A DNA stretch of 64,000 nt from Mollicutes bacterium (lineage in GTDB: Bacteria > Bacillota_I > Bacilli_A > RF39 > UBA660). A model generated the notes under the pieces. The model was not told the DNA's origin. It worked only from the letters and a program-made list of their open reading frames with translations, and made no database searches. The DNA lies in assembly GCA_012799635.1 (NCBI GenBank), contig JAAZKW010000034.1:9930-73929 (forward strand). Reading direction: 5' to 3'. Positions 7,156 to 38,043 of this stretch are shown in pieces. Each line of letters begins with the position of its first letter. The stretch's first letter is position 1. The translations under genes were made by a program, and so were the position numbers.

Positions 7156-7156
7156 T

Positions 7157-7861: not shown

Positions 7862-8868
7862 ACTTCATCCACCTTCATAACTCTTTTGATAATAAATATG
7901 TATAAGAAGTACTGAACTACTAGTATTGCATCTATTACATAACCTGCTTTAGTATATATAAGAGGTTTAAAAAATTCTGGATTTAACATAACAATTAGAA
8001 AAACTAATACAAAAGGAACAATTAATAAAACATAATATAAAAGTTTGCTTGTTGCCAAAAGAGCATTAAGTTCGTTTTTAATTTTTAAGCGGTCATAAAA
8101 ATTGTTTTCTATCATATTAAATACCGATACTATATTACCTCCGGTTTTATTTAGTAATGCTAAAGATGAGGTAATCAGTTTTGCTTCTTCCAGATTAATT
8201 CTTTTATAAAATCTTTCAAACGCTGCTTCTACAGAAATACCATATTTTAAATCTTGATAAATAATATTAAACTCTGATTTAATGGGATTTGGTAATTCAG
8301 TTTTAACTATTTCAATAGCACCTAAAATATTTTTACCACTTTTAAAAGCACTATTCATAATTACTACGGCTTCAAGTAATTGTTCCGAAGTTAAATTTTG
8401 TCTTCTGGTATAAATGAAAAGAACAAAAAAGTCTATTAAAAAGAATCCAACAATTGAAATAATTATAAAATTATAAAAGTTAAAACTAATAATACGAAAT
8501 ATAATTGAAATAAAATATAAAAAGTCAATAAATAACATAACAATAAATTTTAAAGATATATAATCCATAGGTTCTATTGTATGTGATTCATCAAAAGCTA
8601 AATATTTAATAAAATGATTAGCATATTTAGTAAGGAATCGTGATTTACCTAAAAATGACGATATTTTTTTAATAATTTTATTTATATTACTAATAAATAC
8701 ATCGGTATATGAAAGGCCCACAATTTCATCACCATCAATTAAAAATGGCCTAAATCTTTTTTCGATTGATACACTTAAATAAAAGCGATAAATTATAAAA
8801 ACTAGTATTACCACTATAACACCTAACATTAAAGCAAATAATAATTGATTATTAATAGAACTAGTCAT
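7858..8868 (-). CDS. tadB: Tad/type II secretion system F-family inner-membrane protein (TadB-like)
   Basis: 336-aa polytopic membrane protein in operon position directly after the CpaF ATPase. Confidence 0.55.
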   Translation of the reverse strand: MTSSINNQLLFALMLGVIVVILVFIIYRFYLSVSIEKRFRPFLIDGDEIVGLSYTDVFISNINKIIKKISSFLGKSRFLTKYANHFIKYLAFDESHTIEPMDYISLKFIVMLFIDFLYFISIIFRIISFNFYNFIIISIVGFFLIDFFVLFIYTRRQNLTSEQLLEAVVIMNSAFKSGKNILGAIEIVKTELPNPIKSEFNIIYQDLKYGISVEAAFERFYKRINLEEAKLITSSLALLNKTGGNIVSVFNMIENNFYDRLKIKNELNALLATSKLLYYVLLIVPFVLVFLIVMLNPEFFKPLIYTKAGYVIDAILVVQYFLYIFIIKRVMKVDEV

Positions 8869-8879
8869 TTTTATCCTTT

Positions 8880-10199
8880 CTATTTAAACATATTTTTTAT
8901 TTCATCATAACCATAGGAGCTCATTTTTTCTAAACATTTTGGCTTTATCTTGTGCTTTTTATATACCCCATCTATTTCTTTGCTTTTTGTAACACCTATT
9001 TGTTCAAAAGTAAAGATATCATTTAATCTTATTTCTTCATTTTCAAAACCATCAACTTCACAAATAGCACTTATCTTTCTTTTACCATCAGAATATCTAT
9101 TCATATTAATAACGATATTAATAGCACTATTAATATATTCTCTAATAGCTTTAACAGGAAGTTCCATTGCTCCCATTAAAACCATTGTTTCAAGTCTATG
9201 TAAGGCATCTTTACAACCATTAGCATGAAGAGTGGTAATACTTCCTTCATGCCCTGTATTCATCGCTTGAAGCATATCAAAAGCTTCTTTATTCCTAACT
9301 TCTCCTACTATTATACGATCAGGTCTCATACGAAGAGAGTTTCTTACTAAATCTCTAATTGTAATTTCACCACTTTTTTCATAATTAGTTGTCCTTGTTT
9401 CAAGACTTATTACATGAGGTTGCGTTAAACGAATTTCTGCAGCATCTTCAATAGTAATTATTCTTTCATCTTCATTTATAAAGGCACTTAAAACATTTAA
9501 TAATGTTGTTTTACCTGATCCTGTTCCACCACAAACAATTATATTTAATTTAGATTTAACTGCAGCTTCCAAAAATACTGCCATCTCTGTTGTTAAAGAA
9601 CCAACTCTTAATAATTCTTCAATATTATTCATTGATTTTTTAAATTTTCTTATTGTCATAACAGGACCTTTAGTAGATAACGGTGGAATTACGGCATTTA
9701 TTCTAGAACCATCTTTTAATCTTGAATCCACCATAGGACTTGAAGAATCAATTGTTCTTCCCATTGGCTCAACTAATCTTTGAATAGTTCTGATAATATG
9801 CTCATCATTAATAAATGATATACTATCATCTTTAATAAGATTTCCTTCAAGTTCTATGTATATTTCATGAGGTGAATTAACCATTATTTCTGTTATATTT
9901 TCGTCTTTTAAAAGTTCAGTTAAGGGACCATACCCTTTTATTTCATTATCAATCAAATTAAATAAATGATTTTTTTCAAGACTACTTAAATTATATTCAG
10001 CAATAGCTTTATCAATCTGAAAATTTATAAAATCTTCCACACTATCATCTGTAACATTATTATCAATAATATTTTCAACTATCTTCATTCGAAGACTATC
10101 AAGTAAATCTTTATCTTCAAAAACTTCATAATCATTTACTAAGCTAGTATTACTTTTTATTTGATCATATTTAAATGCTTCTCTTAAATTACTTTTCAT
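8880..10199 (-). CDS. cpaF: CpaF/TadA-type secretion ATPase (VirB11/PilT-like superfamily)
   Basis: Walker A CGGTGSGKTTLLN, Asp box IITIEDAAEI, RPDRIIVGEVR, and a His box. Size (439 aa) and N-terminal domain fit CpaF. Confidence 0.85.
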   Translation of the reverse strand: MKSNLREAFKYDQIKSNTSLVNDYEVFEDKDLLDSLRMKIVENIIDNNVTDDSVEDFINFQIDKAIAEYNLSSLEKNHLFNLIDNEIKGYGPLTELLKDENITEIMVNSPHEIYIELEGNLIKDDSISFINDEHIIRTIQRLVEPMGRTIDSSSPMVDSRLKDGSRINAVIPPLSTKGPVMTIRKFKKSMNNIEELLRVGSLTTEMAVFLEAAVKSKLNIIVCGGTGSGKTTLLNVLSAFINEDERIITIEDAAEIRLTQPHVISLETRTTNYEKSGEITIRDLVRNSLRMRPDRIIVGEVRNKEAFDMLQAMNTGHEGSITTLHANGCKDALHRLETMVLMGAMELPVKAIREYINSAINIVINMNRYSDGKRKISAICEVDGFENEEIRLNDIFTFEQIGVTKSKEIDGVYKKHKIKPKCLEKMSSYGYDEIKNMFK

Positions 10200-10956
10200 C
10201 TTTTACCCCCATTAAATCCACACAAATATTAGTAAATGCAAGAGATGCTCTGGGATAACTTTTAGCAAAATTTGATTCTAAAGTTAAAATCTTACCATCT
10301 ATTAAATAATTATCGTAATTTTTTATATAAAAGTTTGTTCCTAATGTGTAATCAATGTTACATTTCATAATATTTCTTAAATCAAACAAACTGAAATAAC
10401 TCTTATGAGGATATACTGAATTATTAAGTAATACTTTATACTTAGTTAAATTATTTTCTTCGAATATCTTTAACAAATTATACATATTTTTAATATTAAC
10501 TAAGTCATTACAACAAACTAATAATATTTGATCAACAATATCAAGAACAGTTATATTAAATTCATTTAAATTGTGATTAAGATCCACTAAAATATAATCA
10601 TATTCATAAAGAGCATTAGTAATTATATGCTCAATATGTTTTGACGATACCTTAACTCCTTGTCTTGGATCTGAAGGTGCGGCTAAAAAAGAAATATATT
10701 CATTATATTTTGTTGCATAATTATCTATTGCCTTAAATCTATTATTAGTATAATCATCAACAAAATTATATATTGATTTTTTAAAAGACCTATTTAAAGA
10801 TGTTCCTACAGCACCACTTGTTAAATCAAAATCAATAATTAAAACTTTTTTATTCATACCAGCAAAAACACCAGCAACATTTAAAAGAACTGTCGTTTTA
10901 CCAACGCCTCCTTTAGTTGAAAATACACATAAACTTTTTCCTTTGCTTTTTCCCAT
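10189..10956 (-). CDS. CpaE/TadZ-like ParA/MinD-family ATPase (pilus assembly localisation ATPase)
   Basis: Deviant Walker A STKGGVGKTT, 255 aa, located immediately upstream of cpaF. Confidence 0.7.
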   Translation of the reverse strand: MGKSKGKSLCVFSTKGGVGKTTVLLNVAGVFAGMNKKVLIIDFDLTSGAVGTSLNRSFKKSIYNFVDDYTNNRFKAIDNYATKYNEYISFLAAPSDPRQGVKVSSKHIEHIITNALYEYDYILVDLNHNLNEFNITVLDIVDQILLVCCNDLVNIKNMYNLLKIFEENNLTKYKVLLNNSVYPHKSYFSLFDLRNIMKCNIDYTLGTNFYIKNYDNYLIDGKILTLESNFAKSYPRASLAFTNICVDLMGVKDEK

Positions 10957-10959
10957 ATT

Positions 10960-11325
10960 TTATCCCTTTTTAATCTTTATTACATTATCTTCTTTTGTAC
11001 CTATCAAAGAAGTTCTAATAATGTAATAATTCTTACCTATAACTTTACCAAGTAAACTATCTATTTTAATTTCTATTTTAATATGTAACCCTTCCTCAAA
11101 AGATATCTCTATTTTTTCATATTCAATATTATTATCATTATATAGTTTTATTATATCATCTTTATCATTTCTTTCAATAGAAGTTTTAATAATCGTTCTT
11201 GTAATGGAATTTAATTTAACTTTATTATATGTTATTAATGATGTATCAATAATAACAGCACATGCAAGTAATAATAAAGGAAGAATTATAATAAATAAAG
11301 CAAGTGTTTGACCTTTATTATTCAT
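10960..11325 (-). CDS. TadE-like pseudopilin
   Basis: MNNKGQTLALFIIILPLLLLACAVIIDTSL is a TadE/Flp-like N-terminus. Confidence 0.5.
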   Translation of the reverse strand: MNNKGQTLALFIIILPLLLLACAVIIDTSLITYNKVKLNSITRTIIKTSIERNDKDDIIKLYNDNNIEYEKIEISFEEGLHIKIEIKIDSLLGKVIGKNYYIIRTSLIGTKEDNVIKIKKG

Positions 11326-11626
11326 ATATTATCCTTTTAATAAGGACTTTATGTTCTTGTCCTAAAACAGGTGTTAAAAATGGTGAATAAATATCCACTT
11401 TGTTAGATAAAATATATATTTTATAATTTTCTTTGCTTTCAATTACAAATTCATATTCACTAGAAAGAGCATAGCTTTCATCGGAAATTAAATTTTCTAA
11501 TGTAAGTTCTAAATTGCTTTTATTTTGCATTATTCTTACGTAATCTAAAGTAGCAATTAATAGCATTATAAAAACGGGTACAACGATAATAAATTCGACT
11601 AAAGCCTGACCCTTTTTATTCATCAT
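11318..11626 (-). CDS. TadE-like pseudopilin
   Basis: MMNKKGQALVEFIIVVPVFIMLLIATLDYV shows the G/xxxVEF TadE signature. It is the first gene of the operon; a TTGCAT...TATAAT promoter and an RBS lie in 11627-11731. Confidence 0.6.
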   Translation of the reverse strand: MMNKKGQALVEFIIVVPVFIMLLIATLDYVRIMQNKSNLELTLENLISDESYALSSEYEFVIESKENYKIYILSNKVDIYSPFLTPVLGQEHKVLIKRIIYE

Positions 11627-13973: not shown

Positions 13974-16900
13974 TTAATTCTTTATTAGACTAATACCAAT
14001 ATTATAATCGTTTAAATTATAATCTAAACTTAATGTATCATCAAAAATAATATCTACTGCTAAAGTTTCATTTTTAATATAATCAGCATTATCAATAATA
14101 CTATCTTTAAATAAACCCTCCGTATTATATTTAATTATAATCCGATCTGCAATATCAAAATTGTTTTCTTTTCTTAGCATTTGTACTTTAGATACAAATT
14201 CTCGTGCATTACCTTCTTTGATTAAAGATTCATTTAAAGTAGTATTTAAAATAACAAAATCACCTAAAGATGTTCCAATATTAAAACCTTCTTTTGCAGT
14301 ATATCGAATATCTACCATATCTTTAGTAATATCATATAAAGTATTATCAATTTTCATTTGGATAACACTATCATTTTGAAGTTTTTCAATATCTGATGAT
14401 GATAATTCTAATAATTTTTTAGCATATTCATGAATGTTTTTACCAAAGATTTTACCCACTACTTTAAATTCTGGTTTAATTGTAAAGTCCATATACTTGT
14501 TTAAATCTTTTTCAAAAACAACTTCTTTAACATTTAATTCTTCTTTAATCAATGTTGTAAGACTAGATAATAATTTTTCATTCTTACCATCAATTAATAC
14601 TTCTGACAACGGTTGTCTTACTTTAATTTTATTTTCTTCTCTAACATATCTTCCAATACTAATTAAATTTCTTACTAAATCCATTTTATCTTCTAAATCT
14701 TTATTTATTAATGATTTATCATATTTAGGAAAAGGTGCTAAATGAACTGACTTATTCCCAGTTATTTTTTGATATATTTCTTCGGATACAAAAGGTACTA
14801 TTGGAGCAATCATTTTACATAACCCAGTTATTACTTCATATGTTGTTATATATACTGATTTCTTACTATTATTAAGTTCTGATCCCCAGAAACGATCTCT
14901 ATTTCTCCTGATATACCAATTAGATAAATCTTCAGATACAAAATTAGTAATAACTTTTACTACTTTATTTAAATCATATACATCATAACTTTCTGTTACA
15001 TATTTTAATAAACTATTATATTTAGATAATAACCATTTATCTATTTCTTCGCGCTCTTTTACATCAATATTACAATCATTGATATCAATATTATCTGTAG
15101 TTGCATACATCGAAAAGAAATTATAAGTATTTTTTAAAGGATTAAAGAACTTAGAATGGACTTCTTTTAAGCCTTCTTCATCAAACTTTAGTGGTATCCA
15201 AACTGGTGATGCATAAGGAATATACCATCTAATAGCATCTGCTCCATACTTTTCTAGTAAAGCAAATGGTTCAATAGAATTACCTTTTGATTTATGCATT
15301 TTTTGACCATGTTTATCAAGCAACAATTCATTTACTAAAACATTCTTATAAGGAGACTTGCCAGTTAAAAAGACTCCGATTACAAGTAGTGAATAAAACC
15401 AACCTCTTGTTTGATCAATACCTTCACAAATAAAATCAGCTGGATATTGTTCTTCCCATAGCTTTTTATTTTCAAAAGGATAATGATATTGTGCAAATGG
15501 CATAGATCCCGAATCAAACCAACAATCAATAACTTCAGGTGTTCTTTGCATCTTTTTACTACATTTAGGGCATTTGATAAAAACATTATCAACAAATGGC
15601 TTATGTAAATCAATATCCTTATCATTTAACTTTTCTATTGACCTTTCTTTCAGCTCTTTAATTGAACCTATCATTTCCATATGACCACAGTCACAGCGCC
15701 ATAAAGGAAGAGGGGTTCCCCAATATCTATTTCTTGATATTGCCCAATCGGTCATATTTAAAAGCCAGTTACCAAATCTTTTGGTTCCAACATATTCAGG
15801 GAACCAGTTTACTTTTTCATTTGCTTTTATAATTTCATCTTTAATCTTAGTAACTTCAAGATAATAAGATGGTCTTGCATAGTAAACTAAAGGACTATGA
15901 CATCTCCAACAATGAGGATATTCATGATCCATCTTCTGTTTTTTAAATAACTTATTATTTTCTTTTAAGTAATCTACTATTTTTAAATCAGCATCAAAAA
16001 TATTTTCTCCTTGCCAAGGTCCCTCATTAAATGTTCCATCTTCATTAACGGGATTTAATATAGCAAGATTATATCTTTTGCATACTTTATTATCATCCTC
16101 ACCAAACGCAGGAGCTATATGAACAATTCCCGTACCATCTTCAGTTGTTACAAAATCATCACACATAACTATAAAAGCTTTTTTTGATGGTTTTAATATC
16201 GGCATTAATTGCTCATATTCTGTATATTCTAAATCTTTACCTTTACATTTAGATAAAACTTTATATTCATCACCCAAAATCACAGGAGCTAATTTTTCTG
16301 ATAAAATAAATTTATTTCCTTTAGAAAGAGCTGTAATATATGTTTCATTTGGATTAACACAAAGGCCTACATTTGATATTAAAGTCCATGGTGTTGTAGT
16401 CCATACAAGAAAATATTCATCACTATCTTTCTTCTTAAAAGTAACATAAACAGTGTTTGCCGTTATATTTTCATATCCTTGAGCAACTTCATGAGAAGCA
16501 AGTCCTGTACCACATCTAGGGCACCAAGGAAGAATCTTTTGCCCTTCATAAAACATCTTTTCTTCAAAAAATCTTTTTAAAATATACCATACGGTTTCAA
16601 TATATGAATTATCATACGTAATGTAAGGGTTATCAAGATCAATGAATTGACCCATTTCTTTAGTTAATCGATTAAAAGCATCAACATTTTTCCAAACAGA
16701 TTCACGACATTTCTGATTAAATTTATCAATGCCATATTTTTCAATATCATCTTTCCCAGAAAAGCCTAATTCTTTTTCAACTTGTACTTCAACAGGAAGA
16801 CCATGAGTATCCCATCCTACTTTTCGAAGAACTTTTTTACCTTTCATAGTTTGATATTTACCAAAAGTATCTTTTAAAAACTTTGCTATCATATGATGAA

Positions 16901-17057
16901 GTCCTGGATTTCCATTGGCAGTTGCTGGTCCATCATAAAAAACAAAAGTTTCGTTTTCTTCCTTTATTGATTTTTCAAAAATTTTTTCTGTTTCAAAAAA
17001 GGTTCTAATATCTTTTTCTGTTTCATACACTTTTTTATCACTTAATTTTTTAAACAT
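13974..17057 (-). CDS. ileS: Isoleucyl-tRNA synthetase
   Basis: HIGH-like PATANGNPGLHH and KMSKS-like KMHKSKGN motifs, plus a Zn-finger Cys cluster. The true start is ATG MFKKLSD with a GGAGGG RBS. The ORF-track N-terminal extension (17058-17108) overlaps the T-box terminator. Confidence 0.93.
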   Translation of the reverse strand: MFKKLSDKKVYETEKDIRTFFETEKIFEKSIKEENETFVFYDGPATANGNPGLHHMIAKFLKDTFGKYQTMKGKKVLRKVGWDTHGLPVEVQVEKELGFSGKDDIEKYGIDKFNQKCRESVWKNVDAFNRLTKEMGQFIDLDNPYITYDNSYIETVWYILKRFFEEKMFYEGQKILPWCPRCGTGLASHEVAQGYENITANTVYVTFKKKDSDEYFLVWTTTPWTLISNVGLCVNPNETYITALSKGNKFILSEKLAPVILGDEYKVLSKCKGKDLEYTEYEQLMPILKPSKKAFIVMCDDFVTTEDGTGIVHIAPAFGEDDNKVCKRYNLAILNPVNEDGTFNEGPWQGENIFDADLKIVDYLKENNKLFKKQKMDHEYPHCWRCHSPLVYYARPSYYLEVTKIKDEIIKANEKVNWFPEYVGTKRFGNWLLNMTDWAISRNRYWGTPLPLWRCDCGHMEMIGSIKELKERSIEKLNDKDIDLHKPFVDNVFIKCPKCSKKMQRTPEVIDCWFDSGSMPFAQYHYPFENKKLWEEQYPADFICEGIDQTRGWFYSLLVIGVFLTGKSPYKNVLVNELLLDKHGQKMHKSKGNSIEPFALLEKYGADAIRWYIPYASPVWIPLKFDEEGLKEVHSKFFNPLKNTYNFFSMYATTDNIDINDCNIDVKEREEIDKWLLSKYNSLLKYVTESYDVYDLNKVVKVITNFVSEDLSNWYIRRNRDRFWGSELNNSKKSVYITTYEVITGLCKMIAPIVPFVSEEIYQKITGNKSVHLAPFPKYDKSLINKDLEDKMDLVRNLISIGRYVREENKIKVRQPLSEVLIDGKNEKLLSSLTTLIKEELNVKEVVFEKDLNKYMDFTIKPEFKVVGKIFGKNIHEYAKKLLELSSSDIEKLQNDSVIQMKIDNTLYDITKDMVDIRYTAKEGFNIGTSLGDFVILNTTLNESLIKEGNAREFVSKVQMLRKENNFDIADRIIIKYNTEGLFKDSIIDNADYIKNETLAVDIIFDDTLSLDYNLNDYNIGISLIKN

Positions 17058-17290
17058 ATTCCCTCCATAAAAAAAGGTAATACCAAAGGGCGAAAACCGC
17101 GGTACCACCTTTATTTTTTCTTAATAATTTAACGCTTCTTAGCGTCTTATCTTACTGTGTTTTCAGATAAGAAGTTTACAAGTGATCTAGATATATCATC
17201 ATTACTAATTTTCATCAACCATCAGCTTTCTTAAAACTTTAATATATCCCCTCTTGGTCATAACTTTTAAACAATACATTCATTTTAATA
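17058..17290 (-). promoter_or_regulatory. T-box riboswitch leader of ileS with its promoter
   Basis: Minus-strand sequence AAUAAAGGUGGUACCGCGG matches the conserved T-box. It is followed by a terminator hairpin, AAGGUGGUACC...GGUAUUACCUU plus a U-run, directly before the ileS RBS. Candidate specifier AUC-A lies in ...UAGAUCACU.... A promoter TTGCAG-N17-TAAAAT sits at about 17282-17310. Confidence 0.8.
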
Positions 17291-17453: not shown

Positions 17454-17759
17454 TTATTGTAAATCATCACGTGATATTCTTGAAATAGCTATATCATTTT
17501 CGTATTCTATAAAAGTTAATTTCTTGTTATTATCAAAAAAATATTTAGAAAGTGATACATATATAGGATTTATCTCATTTAATTTATTAATAGTCTCTTG
17601 ATTCAAAGGCTTTAACAAATCATTAATAATGATTTCTTCATTTCCGATATCAAAATTTTCAAAACCATTTCCATTATTATTAATTTTAACATTATAACCA
17701 AATTTTATAATATTAGTCTTCCCAAACAAATTAATATTTCTTTTTATAATATATTTCAT
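17454..17759 (-). CDS. Hypothetical protein (101 aa)
   Basis: ORF only, no motif recognised. Confidence 0.25.
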   Translation of the reverse strand: MKYIIKRNINLFGKTNIIKFGYNVKINNNGNGFENFDIGNEEIIINDLLKPLNQETINKLNEINPIYVSLSKYFFDNNKKLTFIEYENDIAISRISRDDLQ

Positions 17760-17840: not shown

Positions 17841-17864
17841 AAAATAAAAAGAGATTACTCTCTT
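17841..17864 (-). terminator. Rho-independent terminator after yneF
   Basis: Minus-strand hairpin AAGAGA-GUAA-UCUCUU followed by a U-run. Confidence 0.45.
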
Positions 17865-18072
17865 ATTTAAATCGATTCATTTGACTCATAACTTGTTTAA
17901 CTTGCTTAGCAGATGGTTTTCTTCCCATACTACTCATCATAGCTTCAATCATTTTCTCATTAATTGGTGGGTTTTCAGTAAGTTGTTTTTTCATCAACTG
18001 TTTAGAAATTATAAATCCAATAATTATCCCTACAACTAAAGAGCCAATACTCCATAATATTGTTTCTAACAT
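17863..18072 (-). CDS. yneF: UPF0154 family small membrane protein (YneF-like)
   Basis: A TM helix followed by ENPPINEKMIEAMMSSMGRKPSAKQVKQVM, collinear with Bacillus YneF. A GGAG RBS is present. Confidence 0.75.
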   Translation of the reverse strand: MLETILWSIGSLVVGIIIGFIISKQLMKKQLTENPPINEKMIEAMMSSMGRKPSAKQVKQVMSQMNRFK

Positions 18073-18128: not shown

Positions 18129-20117
18129 TTAATCAAAATTTTTCTTTATTCGATATAAAATAGAATTATAATCAAAATTTAAATATTTAAGAACATCATC
18201 TTTTTTACCAGATATACCAAACTCATCAACACCAATAGCACAATCTTTGTTTGTTGCAAAACGATTCCATATCATTGATGAACCTGCTTCTAAGGTAATA
18301 ATTTTGACTTCTTTAGGGAAAAGCTTTTCCTCATAAATAGGAGTTTGTTTTAAAAACAATTCCATACATGGCATAGATACTACCCTAAGATCTATTCCTT
18401 GAGTAAATAATTCCTCTGCAGCTTTTAATGCAATAGCTACTTCAGATCCTGTCGCAATAAGTACTCCAGATAATTTTTCTTTTTCTTTTCTAACAATATA
18501 AGCTCCATATTGAACATATTTTCCGTTTGTATGCTTATTAACAATCATTTTTTCTTTAGAAATAATTAAACACGAAGGTCCTTTATTTTTTAAAATATAT
18601 TCCCACGAACCAATAATCTCCTTAATATCACAAGGCCTAAACACCTTCATATTAGGAATACTACGAAGCATAGTAAGTTGTTCTATTGGTTGAAAGGTTG
18701 GACCATCTTGGCCAATAGAAATGCTATCATGAGTAAAGATATAAGTGATTGGTAAATTCATCATAGCACTAACTCTCATCGCAGGTTTCATATAATCAGC
18801 AAAAGCTAAAAATGTTGAGGAAAAAACCCTAAGGCCACAAAGGGCCATGCCACCTAGAATACCAGCCATAGCATGTTCTCTAATTCCAAAAGCAATATTT
18901 TTAGCAAGAGGGTTTTCCGAAGATGAAATGCCACTTTTTGTAAAATAAGCTTTTGTTAAAGTTTTAATATTACTAGAGCCACCTAAAAAGAATTTAGTCT
19001 TCGGAGAAATAAAATTAAGCACCTTTTGATTTGATAATCTTCCGTCTTCAAAATAATCGTTATTAATTTTATAATTATTACTATCAAAATCAATAATAAA
19101 TTGATCATTCTCAAGTAAATTAATCATATATACTAAATCAGGATTCCTACTTTTCTTAGCTTTATCATATTCTTTTAACCAAGCTTCATATTTTTTAGAA
19201 ACTCTTTTATCAATAGAACTTATTATCTCTTCTTTTATTTTTTCATCATAACTAAAAGATTCTTTTGGAAGTCCATATTTAACTTTTAAATCGATAATAT
19301 CTTTTTCATCAAGACCTCCAGCATGAAGGATATTATTATTTTCTTTTTTTAAATCTTTACCCAAAATTGTTTTAAAAATAATTATAGAAGGATACTTACT
19401 TCTTTTAGCTTCTTTTATAGCACTACTCACTTCATTTAAATTATGACCATTTTTAACATATATCACATTAAAGTCTAAAGCATCAAAACGATCTTCAATA
19501 TCTTCGATAGTTGAATTATATGTTGGCCCATCTGCATTCATATCATTACTATCATATAAAACAATTAATTTATTTAGTTTTTGCTTAGCTGCAAAAGCAA
19601 GTGCTTCATAACTAATACCTTCATCTAAATCACCATCGCTACATAAAACATAAGTATAAAAATCAATTAATTTACTTTTTGGATCAACCTTTTTACTTAA
19701 ATTTTCATAATATCTTTCTGCCATAGCAACACCAACTGCAGTTGCAATTCCTTGACCAAGAGGGCCAGTTGTTGCCTCAATTCCTAATTCTGGATCCATT
19801 TCTGGATGGCCTGGAGTAAACGAATCTATTTGTCTAAACCTTTTTAAATCCTCTAAGGAAAGATTATAACCTGCTAAATGAAGCATAGAATAATACATAG
19901 CAGAGCCATGACCACATGACATAATAAAACGATCCCTATTAATCCATTTAGGAATTTTACTAATGGTATTTAAATGATTTAAATAAAGACTATATAAAAT
20001 TGGTGACGCACTAAGGACAATACCAGGATTACCACTTTCTGCTTCATTTATCATATCAAGAGCTAGTAATTTTACAGTATTAAGTTTTTTATCGTTCCTT
20101 ATTGCCATATATATCAC
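18129..20117 (-). CDS. tkt: Transketolase
   Basis: 662 aa. ThDP-binding GHPE...GPLGQGI...CSDGDLDEG motifs. Confidence 0.9.
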   Translation of the reverse strand: MIYMAIRNDKKLNTVKLLALDMINEAESGNPGIVLSASPILYSLYLNHLNTISKIPKWINRDRFIMSCGHGSAMYYSMLHLAGYNLSLEDLKRFRQIDSFTPGHPEMDPELGIEATTGPLGQGIATAVGVAMAERYYENLSKKVDPKSKLIDFYTYVLCSDGDLDEGISYEALAFAAKQKLNKLIVLYDSNDMNADGPTYNSTIEDIEDRFDALDFNVIYVKNGHNLNEVSSAIKEAKRSKYPSIIIFKTILGKDLKKENNNILHAGGLDEKDIIDLKVKYGLPKESFSYDEKIKEEIISSIDKRVSKKYEAWLKEYDKAKKSRNPDLVYMINLLENDQFIIDFDSNNYKINNDYFEDGRLSNQKVLNFISPKTKFFLGGSSNIKTLTKAYFTKSGISSSENPLAKNIAFGIREHAMAGILGGMALCGLRVFSSTFLAFADYMKPAMRVSAMMNLPITYIFTHDSISIGQDGPTFQPIEQLTMLRSIPNMKVFRPCDIKEIIGSWEYILKNKGPSCLIISKEKMIVNKHTNGKYVQYGAYIVRKEKEKLSGVLIATGSEVAIALKAAEELFTQGIDLRVVSMPCMELFLKQTPIYEEKLFPKEVKIITLEAGSSMIWNRFATNKDCAIGVDEFGISGKKDDVLKYLNFDYNSILYRIKKNFD

Positions 20118-20208
20118 TTCCTAAGTATATATTTTAACATGTAAATCAAAGTTAGTAAATTGAATAAAGTTTTTTAATTAAAAAACATATCCTTTAATAG
20201 GATATATT

Positions 20209-20730
20209 TTAATTATATTTTAAACAACAACCATCTTTATCACAATAACAGTCTACTAATCCCATTCTATGTTCACCACAATTTGTAGCAGCGCTTGTTC
20301 CTTCAGCTGCTTGATCAGATTTATAATTACTTACAAGGACATCATCAAATACATAAGTACCATCAGATATGGAGAAATAATAATTATATTTACCTGAATC
20401 ATATTCTACAAAAACTGAACCAGTATATTTATCCCCTGGATTATCATCTTCTGTCCACATTCCAGAACCTTTAGTAAAATAGCCATATTTATAAAGATAT
20501 TCCAAATCAAAACAAATATCACTATTCGAACTAAAAGAACCATTTAATTGTTCAAATTGATATGCATTTTTAGCTGCTTCCACTGCTGAAAGCCCTTCAA
20601 GTCCTAAAGATGATTTCTTAGCTCTTCCCACTAATGGTCCTATCGCTGTTACACCAATTAACATTACTACTGAAAGTATTGTTATTATTGCTAAAAGTTC
20701 TATTAAAGTAAATCCTTTATTATTTTTCAT
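20209..20730 (-). CDS. Type IV pilin-like protein (prepilin cleavage/methylation N-terminus) with a Cys-rich C-terminal tail
   Basis: MKNNKG|FTLIELLAIITILSVVMLIGV. C-terminus CGEHRMGLVDCYCDKDGCCLKYN has 6 Cys in 23 aa. Confidence 0.7.
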   Translation of the reverse strand: MKNNKGFTLIELLAIITILSVVMLIGVTAIGPLVGRAKKSSLGLEGLSAVEAAKNAYQFEQLNGSFSSNSDICFDLEYLYKYGYFTKGSGMWTEDDNPGDKYTGSVFVEYDSGKYNYYFSISDGTYVFDDVLVSNYKSDQAAEGTSAATNCGEHRMGLVDCYCDKDGCCLKYN

Positions 20731-20789
20731 TAAGCCTCCACAATATAATGTTATTTTAGCATATTAATTTTGTTTAATGAATAATTACA

Positions 20790-20825
20790 AACAAAAAAAT
20801 AGAGATACTTGTAATATCTCTATTT
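20790..20825 (-). terminator. Rho-independent terminator between the paralog genes and the pilin gene
   Basis: AAATAGAGATA-(7 nt loop)-TATCTCTATTT, followed on the minus strand by TTTTTTT. Confidence 0.6.
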
Positions 20826-20828
20826 TAT

Positions 20829-22085
20829 TTATTCTGTTCTAATTATTTTCAAAAATAAATCATTTGTACTAGGATTCGTTGGCGAAGAAATTAAGTTATC
20901 TCCTGCATCCAGTAAATCAGATGCTACTCTAAATGTATTACCATCTTCATCTATTACCTGAGCATATACCAAATATTTTCCACCTGCTACTGCTTCTGTG
21001 TTACCTAAATCAGATAATTCTATTTCATCTAGAAGGTTATCATAAACAGGTACTTCGGAAAAATCTTCGTATTTATCTACAAGTTCTATACATTCCCCAT
21101 TATTATATTGCATTCTCGTTGCCATATAATCTAATTGATCTAAACTAGGAGATACAGGATTATGTTTTTGATATAAAAGTAAGAAATCTTTAATACTAAA
21201 ATGATCATTATGCATCCAGTCTTCAAAATATCGATATAAAGAAGCTTCTATTAACTTATATTTTTGAGTATTTTCATCTGTTACGTTTATTTTTAATTTA
21301 TCATTTTCAAAAGATGCATTTAAAGTTAAATCATTTCTAACTGAGGCAACAGAACTATACAAAGTACTATTTCCATACACAGGAGATACCGGAGGAGCTC
21401 CTTCTAAAACTTCTAGTTTTAAATATATTTTTTTAGAGTTTCCTACTTTATCAACAACATTTATATATGGATAGCCTATAACTGTGTAATTTGATATATC
21501 AGGATTAAATGTTACTTCTATTCCTTGAACGTCCCACATACCAGTTGCTTCTTGTTCTAATAAATTTAAACTCATTGATTCAAAACCAACTTCATCTGGA
21601 TAATAAAACTCTTGTGTCCCAAAGACCTTTGCATTTTTACCATCACTAAAACTATAATATTCTACTCCAGCATCAAGAAGAGGTGTCCATTTCCAAAGAT
21701 TGATTTTATCACTTTGAAAAATGTAACTTGTTGTCGTCTTGGAATAAAAACTTTTTATTACTGGAATTGTATACATATTATAATAGTTAATATTTGCAAT
21801 TAAATGTTCTTCATTAACTAACTTTTCTTCACCAGTTAGTCCATCAATAAAACTACCATCGGCTCTTTTATATATAACTGTTGTTCCATTTGGTACACCT
21901 TTTGATGTCATAGAAGCAAAAGTTAAATCCTCAGTTGTTAAAACTCCACCATAGTTATTACTACCATCTCTAGTAAATAGATGTTTCCCTATAACATAGG
22001 AATTTGGTGGTATTTCCAGTAGTGCATTAACTTTGAAAGTACCAATGATGAATAATAATATTGCTAATAATATTTTTTTCTTCAT
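20829..22085 (-). CDS. Secreted protein, paralog 2 of a tandem pair (418 aa)
   Basis: Signal peptide MKKKILLAILLFIIGTFKVNA. About 65-70% identical to the upstream gene, with shared blocks FESM(S/G)LNLLE, GYPY(I/V)NVVD and LDEIELSDLGN. Confidence 0.6.
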   Translation of the reverse strand: MKKKILLAILLFIIGTFKVNALLEIPPNSYVIGKHLFTRDGSNNYGGVLTTEDLTFASMTSKGVPNGTTVIYKRADGSFIDGLTGEEKLVNEEHLIANINYYNMYTIPVIKSFYSKTTTSYIFQSDKINLWKWTPLLDAGVEYYSFSDGKNAKVFGTQEFYYPDEVGFESMSLNLLEQEATGMWDVQGIEVTFNPDISNYTVIGYPYINVVDKVGNSKKIYLKLEVLEGAPPVSPVYGNSTLYSSVASVRNDLTLNASFENDKLKINVTDENTQKYKLIEASLYRYFEDWMHNDHFSIKDFLLLYQKHNPVSPSLDQLDYMATRMQYNNGECIELVDKYEDFSEVPVYDNLLDEIELSDLGNTEAVAGGKYLVYAQVIDEDGNTFRVASDLLDAGDNLISSPTNPSTNDLFLKIIRTE

Positions 22086-22097
22086 TTCTTTCTCCTT

Positions 22098-23357
22098 TTA
22101 TATACCAGTAAGCCTATAAAATAAAGCACTTGTACCGGGATCTGCCGGTTGAGAAACTAAATTAGTTCCTGCTTCCTGTAGATAAGATGCCACTTTAAAT
22201 ATATTCCCATCTTCATCTACTACCTGAGCATATATCAAATATTTTCCACCTGCTACTTCTTCTCTGTTACCTAAATCAGATAATTCTACTTCATCTAAAA
22301 GGTTATCATAAACTGGGTCTATAGAAAAATCTTCATATTTATCTACAATTTCTAAATATGTACCATTAAAACTTTTTAATCTATAAATAAAGTAAAAAAC
22401 AGACATTGGATAATCCATATCACCACCATCAGCTTGCACCAAATTCGCAAAATCCAAAAGATTAAAATGCTCATGAGACACATCTTCAAAATATCGATAT
22501 AAAGAAACTTCTATTAACTTATATTTTTGAGTGTTTTGATCTGTTACATTTATTTTCAATTTGTTATTTTCAAAAGTTCCATTTATAGTTAAATCATCTC
22601 TAACCGAAGCAACACTGGTATATAACTTACTATTTCCATAAAAATAAGGAAATCCTTCTTCAATATAATGAAGGTTAAGGTCATAATCAAGTTCTAAATA
22701 TATTTTTTGAAGTTTTCCTACTCTATCAACTACGTTTACATATGGATAACCGATAACTGTATAATTTGATATATCGGAATCAAATGTTACTTCTACTCCT
22801 TGAACACCCCACATACCAGTTGCTTGTGGTTCTAATAAATTTAAACCCATTGATTCAAATCCGTCTTCATCTGGATAATAAAATTCTTGAGTTCCAAAAA
22901 TTCTTGCATTTTTACTATCACTAAAACTATAATACTCTACTCCAGCTGCAAGATAAGTATCTGGGTCCCAATAACTAGTAGCTATAACATCATTTTGAAA
23001 AATATAACCTGTTGCTGTTTTTGAATAAAAACTCTTTATTATTGGAATTTCTTTTAAATTATAATACTTAATCTCAGCAAGCAAATACTCTTCATCAGCA
23101 TATAATAATAATTCACCAGTTAACCCATCAATATAACTACCATCAGCTCTTTTATAAAAAAGCCGATTGTCCCAAGCGCTTTGAGCAGCCATCATTAAAT
23201 GTTGAGTTGTCAAAACTCCATCATATTCATTACTACCATCTCTAGTAAATAGATATTCCCCTAAAACATAGGAATTTGGTGGTATTTCCAATAATGCATT
23301 AACATTATAAATACCAAAGATGAACATTAAAATTGCTAATAATATTTTTTTCTTCAT
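22098..23357 (-). CDS. Secreted protein, paralog 1 of a tandem pair (419 aa)
   Basis: Signal peptide MKKKILLAILMFIFGIYNVNA. Collinear with the downstream paralog. Confidence 0.6.
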   Translation of the reverse strand: MKKKILLAILMFIFGIYNVNALLEIPPNSYVLGEYLFTRDGSNEYDGVLTTQHLMMAAQSAWDNRLFYKRADGSYIDGLTGELLLYADEEYLLAEIKYYNLKEIPIIKSFYSKTATGYIFQNDVIATSYWDPDTYLAAGVEYYSFSDSKNARIFGTQEFYYPDEDGFESMGLNLLEPQATGMWGVQGVEVTFDSDISNYTVIGYPYVNVVDRVGKLQKIYLELDYDLNLHYIEEGFPYFYGNSKLYTSVASVRDDLTINGTFENNKLKINVTDQNTQKYKLIEVSLYRYFEDVSHEHFNLLDFANLVQADGGDMDYPMSVFYFIYRLKSFNGTYLEIVDKYEDFSIDPVYDNLLDEVELSDLGNREEVAGGKYLIYAQVVDEDGNIFKVASYLQEAGTNLVSQPADPGTSALFYRLTGI

Positions 23358-23367
23358 TTTTTCTCCT

Positions 23368-24648
23368 TTATTCTCTATTAGCCGTTACTCTTCTTCCATT
23401 TATTAGTACAACTGTAACAGCATTTATTCCCTCAACATCAAACTTATTAATAGTTGGGTTTGACCCAGTACAAATTTTATTACCATTAACTTCTATAGAT
23501 GTAAAATTAATCTTTGTTCCATCTTCATAAACAGAAATTATTCTATCTGGGGAATAATCATCCACTAAGGTTACTTTAAATGTGTAACTTTTTTCAACCC
23601 AAGTTGCATTTAAAACAATATTACCAGTAACTGCTTGATTAAAATCATAATTACTTCCATTTAATTGCCAGCTACCAAAATTATAACCCTCTTTTGTTGG
23701 ATTATTTGGTTTTGTTACTTTATTGCCCTCTGTAACAGTTTGTGATGGAACACTACTTCCGCCATTACTATTGAAAATTACTGAATAACTATTTATAACT
23801 ACTTCTTTCCAACGAGCTACTAAAGTTATGTTACTATTAACTTTCAAACTAAAATTATACTTGCTTCCATCTAAATACCAACCTTCAAATGTATATCCAC
23901 TTCTTGTTGGATTTTTTGGCTGTACTGCAGTTTTTCCTGCAATCACTCTTTGTGTTGCAACACTATTTCCTCCATCGCTGTTAAATTTAACCTCATATCT
24001 TTTTACATTTGGATCTTCTTTCCACTTTGCTACTAATGTTATATTTCCAGTAACTACAGTATTAAAATCATATTTTTTATTATTCAAATACCAGCCATCA
24101 AAAATATAACCTTCTTTCTTCATATTATTAGGTTCAGATACTTTACCACCAACATTAACCGTTTGATTGTTAACTCTTGTACCTCCATTTGAATTAAATT
24201 TCACAGTATAAGATGATACCTTTTCATATTTTCCTTCGATTGTTAAATCCTTAGTTATTGGTGTAGTAAGGTCATATTCCTTACCATCAACATACCATAC
24301 AAGAGCATAGCCACTTCTATCCTCAAAACCTAATTCTGACACGTTGATTTCACTACTTTCACTAACTTCAATTGTTTTTGTTTTACCTTCAACATTAAAT
24401 GTAAGTTTATATTTTTCTGCTTCTTCATCTGATTTTGTCCAAATAGCTTTTAATGTCATATTTTCTTTTACTGTGCTTGAAAAATCATATTCTTCATCAT
24501 TATATTCCCATCTGACAAAATCATATTCCTCTTTTGTTGGATCATCAGGTTTAATTACTTTTCCACCTTTTTTAACCGTTTGGATTGGAATTTCACTTCC
24601 GCCATCAGTATCAAAAGTCACTTTATAACCTCTTGTACTTAAAAGCAA
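23368..24648 (-). CDS. Surface protein with about 5 Listeria-Bacteroides (Flg_new-type) repeats; the body of a gene whose signal-peptide exon is out of frame upstream (24626-24718)
   Basis: Repeats xYxVxFNSNGGxxVxxQTVxxGxKVxxPxNPTKEGYxFxGWYLNGxxYDFNxxVTGNITLxAxW recur five times. The ORF only begins at a TTG, with no signal peptide of its own. An upstream 31-codon ORF MSSKATMIIAGFIAALIALLSSFFAFKYKRL* with a GGAGG RBS is in the +1 frame. Confidence 0.65.
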   Translation of the reverse strand: MLLSTRGYKVTFDTDGGSEIPIQTVKKGGKVIKPDDPTKEEYDFVRWEYNDEEYDFSSTVKENMTLKAIWTKSDEEAEKYKLTFNVEGKTKTIEVSESSEINVSELGFEDRSGYALVWYVDGKEYDLTTPITKDLTIEGKYEKVSSYTVKFNSNGGTRVNNQTVNVGGKVSEPNNMKKEGYIFDGWYLNNKKYDFNTVVTGNITLVAKWKEDPNVKRYEVKFNSDGGNSVATQRVIAGKTAVQPKNPTRSGYTFEGWYLDGSKYNFSLKVNSNITLVARWKEVVINSYSVIFNSNGGSSVPSQTVTEGNKVTKPNNPTKEGYNFGSWQLNGSNYDFNQAVTGNIVLNATWVEKSYTFKVTLVDDYSPDRIISVYEDGTKINFTSIEVNGNKICTGSNPTINKFDVEGINAVTVVLINGRRVTANRE

Positions 24649-24653
24649 AAAAA
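24647..24653. repeat. A7 (T7 on the coding strand) homopolymer at the junction between the signal peptide and the repeat-protein body
   Basis: With 7 T the reading frame terminates after 31 aa. With 6 (or 9) T the frames fuse into MSSKATMIIAGFIAALIALLSSFLLLSTRGYKVTFD.... Confidence 0.7.
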
Positions 24654-24786
24654 GAACTCAACAAAGCAATTAATGCTGCGATAAAACCAGCAATTATCAT
24701 TGTTGCCTTGCTACTCATTTTTTTCCTCCTTTCCCTCAAAAAAACAAATCGCACATTACTAAAGCTACCTTTAGTATGTTAGCAAC

Positions 24787-24877
24787 ATTGTACTAAAAGT
24801 ATTACCTCAATGTCAATCTTTTTATGTTTTGATTAATAAAAACATTTGTTTGACTTTTATGTAATACTATAATAGAA
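24787..24877. promoter_or_regulatory. Divergent promoter region between lexA and the surface-protein cluster, with a candidate LexA operator
   Basis: Plus strand: TTGACT-N17-TAGAAT upstream of lexA. Minus strand: TTGACA-N18-TACAAT upstream of the repeat-protein gene. Palindrome AAACATTTGTTT (about 24840-24851) resembles a degenerate Cheo box GAAC-N4-GTTC and overlaps the lexA -35. Confidence 0.4.
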
Positions 24878-24896
24878 TTTAATTATAAAAAGGAGT

Positions 24897-25526
24897 TTGA
24901 AAATGGAGAAAAACCTTTCTAAAAGACAAAAAGATGTTTTAGATTTTATAAAAAAATATAGTGCTAAAAATGGTTATCCTCCTACTATAAGAGAAATATG
25001 TAAAGGAGTGGGCTTATCTAGTACTGCTACTGTCTTTGTTCATGTTAAAAATTTAGAAAACCTCGGAGTTTTAAAAAGTAGTAACAATAAATTTCGTACT
25101 TTAGAACTTCTAGTTGATAATGAATACGAAAAGAAAAATGAAGAAGTAGTTAAGGTACCTCTTCTTGGAAAAGTAACTGCAGGTAATCCTATTACTGCCA
25201 TTGAAATGCCTAATGAATTTTTCTTCCTTCCTTCATATTTAGTGCCTCCTTCTAAAGAAATATTTACCTTACATGTATCTGGAGATAGTATGATAAATGC
25301 TGGAATATTTGATAATGATTATGTTATTGTTCAAAGACAAAAAAATGCTAATAATGGACAAATTGTAGTCGCTATGAATAATGACAATGAGGTTACTTTA
25401 AAAAGATTTTATAAAGAAAAGGGACATATTAGATTACAACCTGAAAACGATACCATGGAACCCATTATCCTTGATGATTGTGAAATCCTTGGCATCGCTA
25501 TCGGTCTTTATCGCAAAATAAAATAG
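24897..25526 (+). CDS. lexA: LexA repressor (S24 peptidase)
   Basis: N-terminal winged-HTH, catalytic Ser in SGDSMINAGI and Lys in VTLKRF, 209 aa. Confidence 0.9.
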   Translation: MKMEKNLSKRQKDVLDFIKKYSAKNGYPPTIREICKGVGLSSTATVFVHVKNLENLGVLKSSNNKFRTLELLVDNEYEKKNEEVVKVPLLGKVTAGNPITAIEMPNEFFFLPSYLVPPSKEIFTLHVSGDSMINAGIFDNDYVIVQRQKNANNGQIVVAMNNDNEVTLKRFYKEKGHIRLQPENDTMEPIILDDCEILGIAIGLYRKIK

Positions 25527-25556
25527 TAAGAATTTTAATCTTTCTTACTATTTTTT
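25525..25556. terminator. Bidirectional terminator shared by lexA and the convergent gene
   Basis: AGTAAGAA-(loop)-TTCTTACT followed by TTTTTT. The stop codons of both convergent genes lie within it. Confidence 0.55.
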
Positions 25557-26614
25557 ATTACTTTAATTTTCTTACTATTAATAATTATAATTACTAAAAT
25601 TGCTACCATTATTATTAAAATAACTGGAATACCTATAATTAATAAATATTTATTAACACTTTTTTTTGTTATATCATCAGGTGATTCTTCGATTACTTTA
25701 GTCTTGATACTTTCCTTTATTTGCTTTTGTTTTTCTTCTTCAGTTAATGGTTCTTTTTTCTTAGCATCTATTATAATATCATGATCATCTGCTTCATCTG
25801 TAGGATACTGCAAAATATACAGTTTTCCATCAACATCTATATATAAATTATCTACCTCAGCATAATTTTGTGAATTAGAATATTTAGGATAAGAAATATA
25901 TTTAATTTGATATTCTTTATTAAGTTTAAAAACATCTTCTAAATTTAATTTGTTTCCTTCTAAATCAAATACTCGGCATAACTTATTTGAATAATTTTTA
26001 CATTCAAAACTCTTAAACGTCAATTTATAATTATAATCTTCTAGAACATTACTTGAGTGAATTGGAACTAATTTGCCATTATATTTCATATAAAAAGCAT
26101 ATTTATCAGAGAAAGGATAGCCAATATCTTTTAGAGCAAGATATTTAACATCAATTGGAGTTAAAAACTTTAGTCCGTATTTATCATACTCTTCATCTTT
26201 TCTTTCCCAACCGTATATTTTATCATCGTATTTTTTAATAACATCTTTTGTATAATAATAAGGAATATTTTCTAATCTTTGTCCTAAATATCTCCCGCAA
26301 TTAAACTTATCTTCTCGATAATCAAGTTTAACATATCCAGAAAGATTACCCTCGGTAATATAAACCCAGCCACCCGTTTCATAACAATCATTTGAATATT
26401 TGACTTTTGTTTCAGCTTTTAAAGTGCCAACTTCTTCGAACAGTTCCGATGGACCTCTTCTTAATATTACATCAACAAGTAAATAACGAACAACATACTT
26501 TTCAATTTTATGTTCAAAACTGGGATTTATTAAGTCTTCAGCTTTAATATAATGGTGGATATAAGGTTCATTAGTAGGGATGGCAAAAAAATTAACTTTT
26601 TGAACATTTGACAC
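25535..26614 (-). CDS. C-terminally anchored (tail-anchor TM) protein with an SH3-like N-terminal region
   Basis: C-terminal TM LLIIGIPVILIIMVAILVIIII. No N-terminal signal peptide. Confidence 0.35.
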   Translation of the reverse strand: MSNVQKVNFFAIPTNEPYIHHYIKAEDLINPSFEHKIEKYVVRYLLVDVILRRGPSELFEEVGTLKAETKVKYSNDCYETGGWVYITEGNLSGYVKLDYREDKFNCGRYLGQRLENIPYYYTKDVIKKYDDKIYGWERKDEEYDKYGLKFLTPIDVKYLALKDIGYPFSDKYAFYMKYNGKLVPIHSSNVLEDYNYKLTFKSFECKNYSNKLCRVFDLEGNKLNLEDVFKLNKEYQIKYISYPKYSNSQNYAEVDNLYIDVDGKLYILQYPTDEADDHDIIIDAKKKEPLTEEEKQKQIKESIKTKVIEESPDDITKKSVNKYLLIIGIPVILIIMVAILVIIIINSKKIKVIKNSKKD

Positions 26615-26631
26615 TTTAGCACCACGGGGTA

Positions 26632-26994
26632 TTAAAAATTTTTTTCATTTTCACTAAGAAGAGTATTAACATCATATTCATCAGTTATTTCCGCTGTAAA
26701 GTTATCTGCAATATGCTCGTTTTTTAAGCTTCTTATTGAAATATAATATTTTTTATTATTATAAATGACAGAAACATACTCTGAAACCATATTATCTATT
26801 GGAACTTTTGTGCCATATGGTATTATGGTTTTATCATTTTCACCAAAACCACAACAACTAAATACCTTAGCGCCATCTTGATTACCCACCTTTGCCATAG
26901 GTGTTTCTTTTACAAAGATAGGTCCAGAATCTGCTGAAACGACAAGAGACATTAACATTACTACAACAATTAATAATTTTAAAATTTTTTTCAT
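26632..26994 (-). CDS. Small secreted protein (SH3b-like)
   Basis: Signal peptide MKKILKLLIVVVMLMSLVVSA. Confidence 0.4.
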   Translation of the reverse strand: MKKILKLLIVVVMLMSLVVSADSGPIFVKETPMAKVGNQDGAKVFSCCGFGENDKTIIPYGTKVPIDNMVSEYVSVIYNNKKYYISIRSLKNEHIADNFTAEITDEYDVNTLLSENEKNF

Positions 26995-37848: not shown

Positions 37849-38043
37849 AAAATAAGCTATAAAAGAATAAAATTTATTCTTATTAGATCACTTTAGTCAC
37901 CTCTTATCTTCATAAATATACCATAATACTTTTTATAATTCAATAACTAAGTTTACCTTGTTATTTGATAAAAATACGAATATTGATATAATTGAATATA
38001 TCGATTTATTTTTGTATAATATTAGTTAGCTGGAGATGATGAT

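Follow-up and report, generated by a model that had tools for sequence, protein, structure and literature searches.

The 64 kb stretch of Mollicutes DNA analysed here (the window, with a base composition of about 25% GC) holds lexA divergent from genes for a repeat adhesin and two secreted proteins, with a degenerate LexA-box-like palindrome in the intergenic region between them. We read this arrangement, with a probability of roughly 0.7, as one in which the palindrome serves as an operator of lexA only, an adhesin operon without an operator has been inserted at the position where relatives carry a small SOS gene, the adhesin gene exists in a T6 or a T7 state of a homopolymeric tract, and a nearby prepilin gene stands apart as a separate unit. 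This outcome is mainly corrective with respect to the original prediction, which saw a surface-protein and pilin cluster that could be co-regulated with the SOS response: the palindrome would be the repressor's own operator and no sign of an SOS-regulated adhesin, the adhesin gene is frameshifted, and the 'pilin cluster' is probably a coincidence of neighbours.

The putative operator of lexA

The gene order that had been proposed for the minus strand, namely repeat adhesin, two paralogues, terminator, prepilin, tkt and yneF, divergent from lexA, was confirmed by open reading frames (ORFs) and Pfam matches. The lexA gene itself (24903-25526, plus strand) encodes 207 amino acids (aa) with the Pfam domains LexA_DNA_bind and Peptidase_S24. 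The protein is an equivalog of NCBIfam TIGR00498, scoring 218.6 bits where the cut-off is 110.95, and its translation shows the Ala-Gly cleavage site as well as the motifs of the catalytic serine (GDSM) and lysine (TLKRF). Its start was moved from TTG 24897 to ATG 24903, in accordance with the spacing to the ribosome-binding site and with gene calls of 207 aa.

Two divergent sigma-A-like promoters had been predicted in the intergenic region, and both are present. The lexA promoter, TTGACT-17-TAGAAT (24850..24878, plus strand), matches the consensus at 10 of 12 positions and has a -35 element whose position is conserved in relatives, and the promoter of the adhesin operon, TTGACA-18-TACAAT (24816..24787, minus strand), matches at 11 of 12; the two -35 hexamers are 33 bp apart. 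The palindrome AAACATTTGTTT occupies 24840-24851 and ends with the two bases that open the lexA -35 hexamer TTGACT (24850-24855), which bears out the overlap that had been described. Its core, AAAC-ATTT-GTTT, agrees with the GAAC-N4-GTTC core of the Cheo box at six of eight positions, leaving two mismatches. As a strandless feature, the candidate Cheo-type operator AAAACATTTGTTTG spans 24839..24852.

For comparison, 80 lexA loci were fetched from one-genome-per-species contigs and their upstream regions were aligned; 78 of these were usable, and per-position counts were made on 75. The relatives are uncultured gut Bacilli and metagenome-assembled genomes labelled 'Mollicutes' or 'Tenericutes', with a best LexA identity of 79%. 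A box [G/A]AAC-N4-GTTT with at most two mismatches in eight positions is fused to the TTGAC of the lexA -35 element in about 64 of the 78 loci, and the two-mismatch state seen in the window is the commonest one at this site (50/78). The palindrome is most likely the autoregulatory operator of lexA, an assignment that we make because the position of the box is conserved across the clade, and not from sequence statistics alone; it is the conservation that is observed, and binding by LexA that we infer from it. In this sense the original description of a LexA-box-like site gains support from the comparison.

A position-weight matrix built from the operators of the relatives returned 24840-24851 as the sole candidate LexA box between lexA and the adhesin gene, with no other site in 24719-24902 scoring above zero. 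The canonical GAAC-N4-GTTC does not occur in the window, and the other top matrix matches (50544, 60854 and 60569) all fall within coding regions. The best match of the whole window (50544, CGAACATTTTTTCT) lies inside rmuC (50089-51174, minus strand) and not in a promoter. Note that the window contains no recA, uvrA/B or dinB; addAB, rmuC and an alkylation-repair gene are present instead, addA and addB, encoding a UvrD-type helicase and a PD-(D/E)XK nuclease, at 39931-45301 on the minus strand. Likewise, recA was sought in the 80 related lexA loci and was not found.

The lexA locus in related genomes

In 58 of the 78 loci, the strand opposite lexA carries an ORF of 42-64 aa, with a good ribosome-binding site and a single transmembrane segment, that starts 110-140 bp upstream of lexA. 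The encoded proteins consist of a short and basic N-terminus, a single transmembrane helix and a polar tail, often with the motif N/D-R-[FIV]-x-x-L; the family has no Pfam match, and all of its 86 database relatives are annotated as hypothetical. The small gene is preceded by a promoter of the form TTGACA-CGAACAnnTGTTCG-TGA-TAnnnT, in which a near-consensus Cheo box, CGAAC-N4-GTTCG, fills the spacer between -35 and -10. This distal box is centred at about -22 and lies 28 bp from the lexA-proximal box of the same loci. It is present in 56 of the 58 loci with the small gene and in nine of the 20 without it (Fisher p = 1.3e-6), at a chance expectation of about 0.16 per region. Five of these nine loci encode a different protein of 60-62 aa, and two a YneA-like protein with LysM. 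The protein of 60-62 aa (L024, L027, L028, L031 and L032; beginning MEYYTINDIQILTGY) is soluble; its gene is divergent from lexA, has retained the LexA box in its promoter and appears to be another small gene under SOS control, distinct from the first.

In Gram-positive bacteria, the proteins that inhibit division during the SOS response span the membrane once, show little sequence conservation and have their genes next to lexA (PMC6851548), and by position and type the small gene of the relatives would be the counterpart of those for YneA and SosA. As such, the unnamed family of 42-64 aa represents candidate SOS division inhibitors across dozens of species of uncultured low-GC gut Bacilli.

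The window holds no LexA-controlled small single-transmembrane protein of this type beside lexA. No homologue of the family was found in its six frames, nor among the 86 database members, and the best candidate for a distal box has three mismatches in eight positions and a matrix score of -3.8. Two candidates for the small gene were examined and rejected: the best match in the window, 37936-38025 with E = 0.0096, falls in AT-rich intergenic DNA and has no start codon, and the fragment of 31 aa that opens the adhesin gene shows no similarity to the family, has no LexA box and starts 185 bp from lexA, as opposed to 110-140 bp. The lexA locus of this organism has apparently lost the small gene. 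Among the relatives without the small gene, 11 of 20 keep the proximal box alone, and the architecture of the window corresponds to this recurring state of 'autoregulation only'.

What lies beyond the small gene differs within the clade, with tkt-yneF in the closer relatives and polA in the more distant ones. The locus with the closest LexA (L001) has the order yneF-tkt-small gene-lexA ... rpe-rsgA, the small gene being located at about 9715-9876; tkt and lexA are some 350 bp apart in this case and 4.8 kb apart in the window, and the outer flanks are the same. No gene of the adhesin or paralogue family was detected up to 10 kb from lexA in the 80 related loci, and because none of them carries the adhesin/paralogue operon, the operon is best described as a lineage-specific insertion. 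Between tkt and lexA, the hallmarks of a mobile island were absent, with neither flanking repeats nor an integrase, and the GC content of the insertion (0.29-0.30, against 0.27-0.29 in the flanks) reveals no compositional shift. The proposal that an accessory surface module was inserted into, or replaced, the slot of the SOS division inhibitor is a fair one, given the small transmembrane gene that 58 of 78 loci hold there.

Operator assignment and SOS control

Several points weigh against the reading that we prefer. The motif AAAC-N4-GTTT is seen six times in the window where 2.3 occurrences are expected, and the matrix score of the palindrome, 10.2, is one for which about 2.8 equally good sites are expected in shuffled sequence. 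LexA positioned at -65 could act on the divergent promoter through contacts between an UP-element and the C-terminal domain of the RNA polymerase alpha subunit, or through supercoiling coupling, and in Staphylococcus aureus the adhesin gene fnbB provides a precedent for LexA control through a box that departs from the canonical form (PMC11442139). In addition, the small transmembrane gene, absent from the locus and the window, could lie elsewhere in the genome.

The first of these points, together with the two mismatches to the Cheo core and the fact that part of the palindrome is the -35 hexamer itself, would suit a sequence unrelated to LexA binding, namely an AT-rich, UP-element-like stretch at a strong -35 element, kept through promoter conservation alone. 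However, the positions of the box that lie outside the hexamer are retained much more often than the 12.5% expected for either base at 25% GC, with C in 55 of 75 relatives and G in 65, and 22 of 75 relatives have a full GAAC half-site at the lexA -35 position. The near-consensus box located 28 bp away in the same loci furthermore implies that the LexA of this clade recognises motifs of this class, and autoregulation of lexA is general. We consider it unlikely on these grounds that the palindrome is anything other than the operator of lexA.

A second alternative, put forward in the original prediction, is that LexA at the shared palindrome represses both divergent promoters, such that the adhesin operon would be induced by DNA damage. 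In relatives, in Bacillus and in Staphylococcus, LexA does control the slot that the operon occupies (PMC6851548), the divergent -35 hexamers are close to each other, and fnbB is an adhesin under LexA control with a weak box (PMC11442139). Yet the palindrome is centred at about -65 relative to the inferred start of adhesin transcription, beyond the footprint of the RNA polymerase core, the window has no counterpart of the dedicated second operator with which relatives fill the spacer of their divergent promoter, and of the 20 relatives without the small gene 11 have likewise retained the proximal box alone. Co-regulation is unsupported because the adhesin promoter lacks precisely the operator that such control would require: from -35 to +1 this promoter contains no LexA box, its spacer being TTGAGGTAATACTTTTAG where the relatives have CGAACAnnTGTTCG. 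Repression of both promoters from the one palindrome thus seems improbable to us, a residual influence of LexA on the operon from -65 is similarly doubtful, and the adhesin operon is most likely expressed independently of LexA.

In the mechanism that we propose for the lexA-only operator, two back-to-back sigma-A promoters would share their intergenic region with a single LexA operator. LexA bound at 24839-24852 would block access of RNA polymerase to the lexA promoter, which amounts to ordinary autoregulation, and in most relatives the second, near-consensus box in the spacer of the divergent promoter would control the small transmembrane gene. At the locus in the window, both this gene and its operator are gone, and an operon of 3.9 kb takes their place, with what is predicted to be a strong, operator-free promoter at its beginning and a terminator at its end.

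A T6/T7 polymorphism in the adhesin gene

The span 23368-24718 assigned to the adhesin is not a single ORF: a homopolymeric run of seven T (24647..24653, minus strand; A7 on the plus strand) splits it in two. A segment encoding an N-terminal membrane anchor (24623..24718, minus strand) opens with ATG 24718 behind a good ribosome-binding site and ends with a stop codon at 24623-24625, forming a separate ORF of 31 codons, MSSKATMIIAGFIAALIALLSSFFAFKYKRL. The repeat body (23368..24621, minus strand), with four Flg_new/InlB B-repeats and a conserved C-terminal domain, is identified by tandem matches to Pfam PF09479 (E = 1.7e-71) and by TIGR02543. In the window the adhesin is thus FRAMESHIFTED, with the repeat ORF (from TTG 24648 or GTG 24621) in another frame than the anchor. 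Deletion of one T from the T7 run yields a protein of 449 aa with an N-terminal membrane anchor, and T6 corresponds to the intact gene.

Both alleles are found in other assemblies. The T6 allele is present in contig L082 (ENA ERZ21942150), with a gene call of 449 aa, and this contig differs from the window by 24 mismatches in 8631 positions (99.7% identity). The T7 allele of the window recurs in L081 (JGI 3300002170), which is 100% identical, and in L083 (Logan ERR10905742), with one mismatch; in both of these the gene call is 417 aa, starting with GTG 24621. In a collection of 15 billion proteins, the form of 417 aa occurs on seven contigs, including NCBI NMA51018.1, and the form of 449 aa on two.

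A tract whose length differs between strains and thereby switches the reading frame, here T7 versus T6, is one of the features expected of a phase-variable gene. Frame-switching homopolymers are known at the 5' anchor-coding position in surface-protein genes of low-GC bacteria, the T tract sits in just such a segment, T6 and T7 both come from independent samples, and the repeat ORF of 417 codons shows no further damage, retaining the same amino acid sequence as the T6 allele. The same polymorphism could, however, reflect a pseudogene of recent origin, inactivated by a one-off mutation that became fixed in a single, widely sampled lineage. Runs of at least six A or T are very common, with 334 in the window and 115 of at least seven, so that the T7 tract is neither unusually long nor specialised, and the T7 contigs examined are all 99.99-100% identical to the window, while the T6 contig belongs to a different strain. 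We give about equal odds to a reversible phase switch and to a pseudogene that arose recently in this lineage. This on/off polymorphism of the adhesin is of modest comparative interest.

The level of anchored adhesin would accordingly be set by the state of the tract in the anchor-coding segment, T6 giving the intact protein of 449 aa, and T7 an anchor of 31 aa and a repeat body that should have no export signal. A combination in which the operon, having replaced the small SOS gene, keeps a coupling to the SOS response as well, through the lone operator at a distance of 33 bp from its -35 hexamer or through supercoiling between the divergent promoters upon derepression of lexA, and adds a T6/T7 slippage switch, would make adhesion responsive to both DNA damage and phase variation; we deem this very unlikely, and prefer a LexA-independent operon in which the tract decides on anchoring.

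A hairpin followed by a U-rich run, UUGUUUUUUU, was observed in the 5' leader of the adhesin gene (24738-24786, minus strand), just upstream of its ribosome-binding site. It has a folding energy of -16.3 kcal/mol (z = -3.3), resembles a terminator, an attenuator or a 5' stabiliser, and matches no Rfam family; in the window, the only Rfam matches are a T-box (17083-17270) and a tRNA.

The secreted paralogues

The adhesin gene is followed after 10 nt by the gene for secreted paralogue A (22098-23357, minus strand, 419 aa) and after a further gap of 12 nt by its tandem duplicate, encoding paralogue B (20829-22085, minus strand, 418 aa). The two proteins share 66% amino acid identity, and the DNA shows 79-87% nucleotide identity at a spacing of about 1270 nt. 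Each has a signal peptide, and neither belongs to a Pfam or NCBIfam family. The terminator that had been placed between the paralogues and the prepilin gene is confirmed as a hairpin with a U-run after paralogue B (20793-20823, minus strand; inverted repeat I5), with -14.3 kcal/mol and z = -5.4, followed by U7. In L086 an orthologue of the adhesin with the same C-terminal domain is likewise followed after 10 nt by a gene of the paralogue family, and because of this identical pairing the adhesin and its partner would form a conserved two-gene unit, in which the partner has been tandemly duplicated in the window. The operon would have a role in surface display.

Among 5.8 billion clustered proteins, the paralogues have only three close homologues. 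A profile search returned 302 cluster representatives, most of which share no more than the first ~70 aa after the signal peptide, within the first ~90 residues of either paralogue, with the consensus IPxxSYIIGxYLFTR...Y.G.LTT..IMLASKTI......DM.IYYK...G.WI..LTGE. The proteins that contain this module range from 87 to 1999 aa, and some add Flg_new, DUF285/BspA leucine-rich repeats or cohesin domains. An AlphaFold2 (AF2) model of the module was confident, with a mean predicted local distance difference test (pLDDT) score of 80.6; the module has no match in Pfam, and a search of the PDB with the model gave no match at E <= 0.001. A model of full-length paralogue A was discarded as unusable (pLDDT 39.6). 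The occurrence of this unannotated N-terminal module in about 300 representatives of secreted or surface proteins is of modest comparative interest.

The prepilin gene

Downstream of the terminator, the prepilin-like gene (20209-20730, minus strand) encodes 173 aa with seven cysteines. The N-terminus has the cleavage and methylation motif G-F-T-L-I-E followed by a hydrophobic helix, and is matched by N_methyl (PF07963, E = 4.8e-8) and TIGR02532. The gene is preceded by an extended -10-like element, TGnTAAAAT (TGCTAAAAT), and followed by a terminator of its own (~20176-20210, minus strand; -11.2 kcal/mol, z = -3.8), and tkt is preceded by a further promoter-like site. These separate promoter-like sites and terminators imply at least two units upstream of tkt. 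Of the 24 homologues of the prepilin, those in three longer contigs examined are solitary, located after parE/parC-like genes among housekeeping genes, and in these contigs no linkage to adhesins, lexA or pilus assembly genes was seen. Nor do assembly genes, such as those for a PilB/ComGA-type ATPase, a platform protein or a prepilin peptidase, adjoin the prepilin gene in the window. The 'surface-protein and pilin cluster' therefore does not hold as one unit, being split by a terminator and a promoter-like site, and the prepilin gene is probably a separate, stand-alone transcription unit outside any module, placed beside the adhesin operon by coincidence.

Further pilus-related genes were observed in the window. 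A Tad-type (type IVc) pilus locus, of another pilus class than the prepilin, extends over 6151-11626 on the minus strand, with genes for a TadE-like protein (11318-11626), a ParA/TadZ-like protein (10189-10956), a T2SSE ATPase (8880-10199), two T2SSF proteins (7157-8868) and a beta-lactamase-family protein (6151-7155). Another N_methyl prepilin, likewise solitary and 144 aa long, is encoded at 1954-2388 on the minus strand, between der (586-1887) and engB (2397-2978), and resembles the prepilin of 173 aa in the N-terminal 50 residues only. In seven of the related loci (L019, L022, L023, L026, L030, L033 and L035), one or two prepilin-like genes with 30-42% identity to the prepilin of 173 aa lie downstream of lexA; in this clade, pilin genes are thus repeatedly seen close to lexA, in varying arrangements.

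Flanking genes

On the far side of the prepilin gene follow the conserved flanking genes, tkt (transketolase; 18129-20108, minus strand) and yneF (UPF0154; 17863-18072, minus strand), both assigned by Pfam and by synteny in relatives and the former also by gene calls of 659 aa; in the mechanical ORF list tkt was extended to GTG 20117. The order cited for B. subtilis, lexA divergent from yneA-yneB-ynzC, then tkt and further on yneF, agrees with the arrangement of that genome. An ORF of 101 aa without a family (17454-17759) lies between yneF and a T-box leader (Rfam RF00230, 100.8 bits; 17083-17270, minus strand) upstream of ileS (13974-17108). On the other side, two genes convergent with lexA (25535-26994, minus strand) encode uncharacterised proteins that are exported or membrane-bound, one of 359 aa with a weak SH3_3 match and a C-terminal transmembrane segment, the other a secreted protein of 120 aa; no homologue of either was detectable at the L001 locus.

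Relation to known systems

The locus holds nothing beyond known kinds of system and is ordinary, with some comparative interest. The arrangement at lexA resembles the Cheo box (GAAC-N4-GTTC) of the B. subtilis DinR/LexA system in that a 4 bp-spaced inverted repeat lies over the lexA promoter, the stronger site of the clade has the consensus CGAACAnnTGTTCG, and the LexA protein is a clear equivalog. It differs in having a single operator with the degenerate outer positions AAAC and GTTT, whose right half is constrained by its double function as the -35 element (GTTTGAC); the lexA-yneA intergenic region of B. subtilis contains several boxes. With YneA of B. subtilis and SosA of S. aureus (PMC6851548), the relatives share a small single-transmembrane gene beside lexA with a LexA box in its promoter. 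The window, in contrast, has no such gene, and the candidate proteins of the relatives are shorter (42-64 aa), without LysM and without a Pfam family.

Like the adhesin of the window, fnbB of S. aureus encodes a surface adhesin, for which SOS control via a weak box has been proposed (PMC11442139), but the fnbB box is located in the promoter region of the gene itself, whereas the adhesin promoter of the window is without a box. The T6/T7 polymorphism parallels slipped-strand phase variation of homopolymers in that strains differ by a single base in a mononucleotide run of the 5' coding region, which yields either a full-length, anchored or a truncated product; the tract of six or seven is nevertheless short and ordinary for this genome, and the two alleles reside on different strains. 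Finally, with its four Flg_new repeats the adhesin is related to the InlB B-repeat/Flg_new surface proteins. It has no leucine-rich repeat internalin domain and neither an LPXTG nor a GW module, and is distinguished from them by an N-terminal membrane anchor, an uncharacterised C-terminal domain and partner genes of an orphan family downstream.

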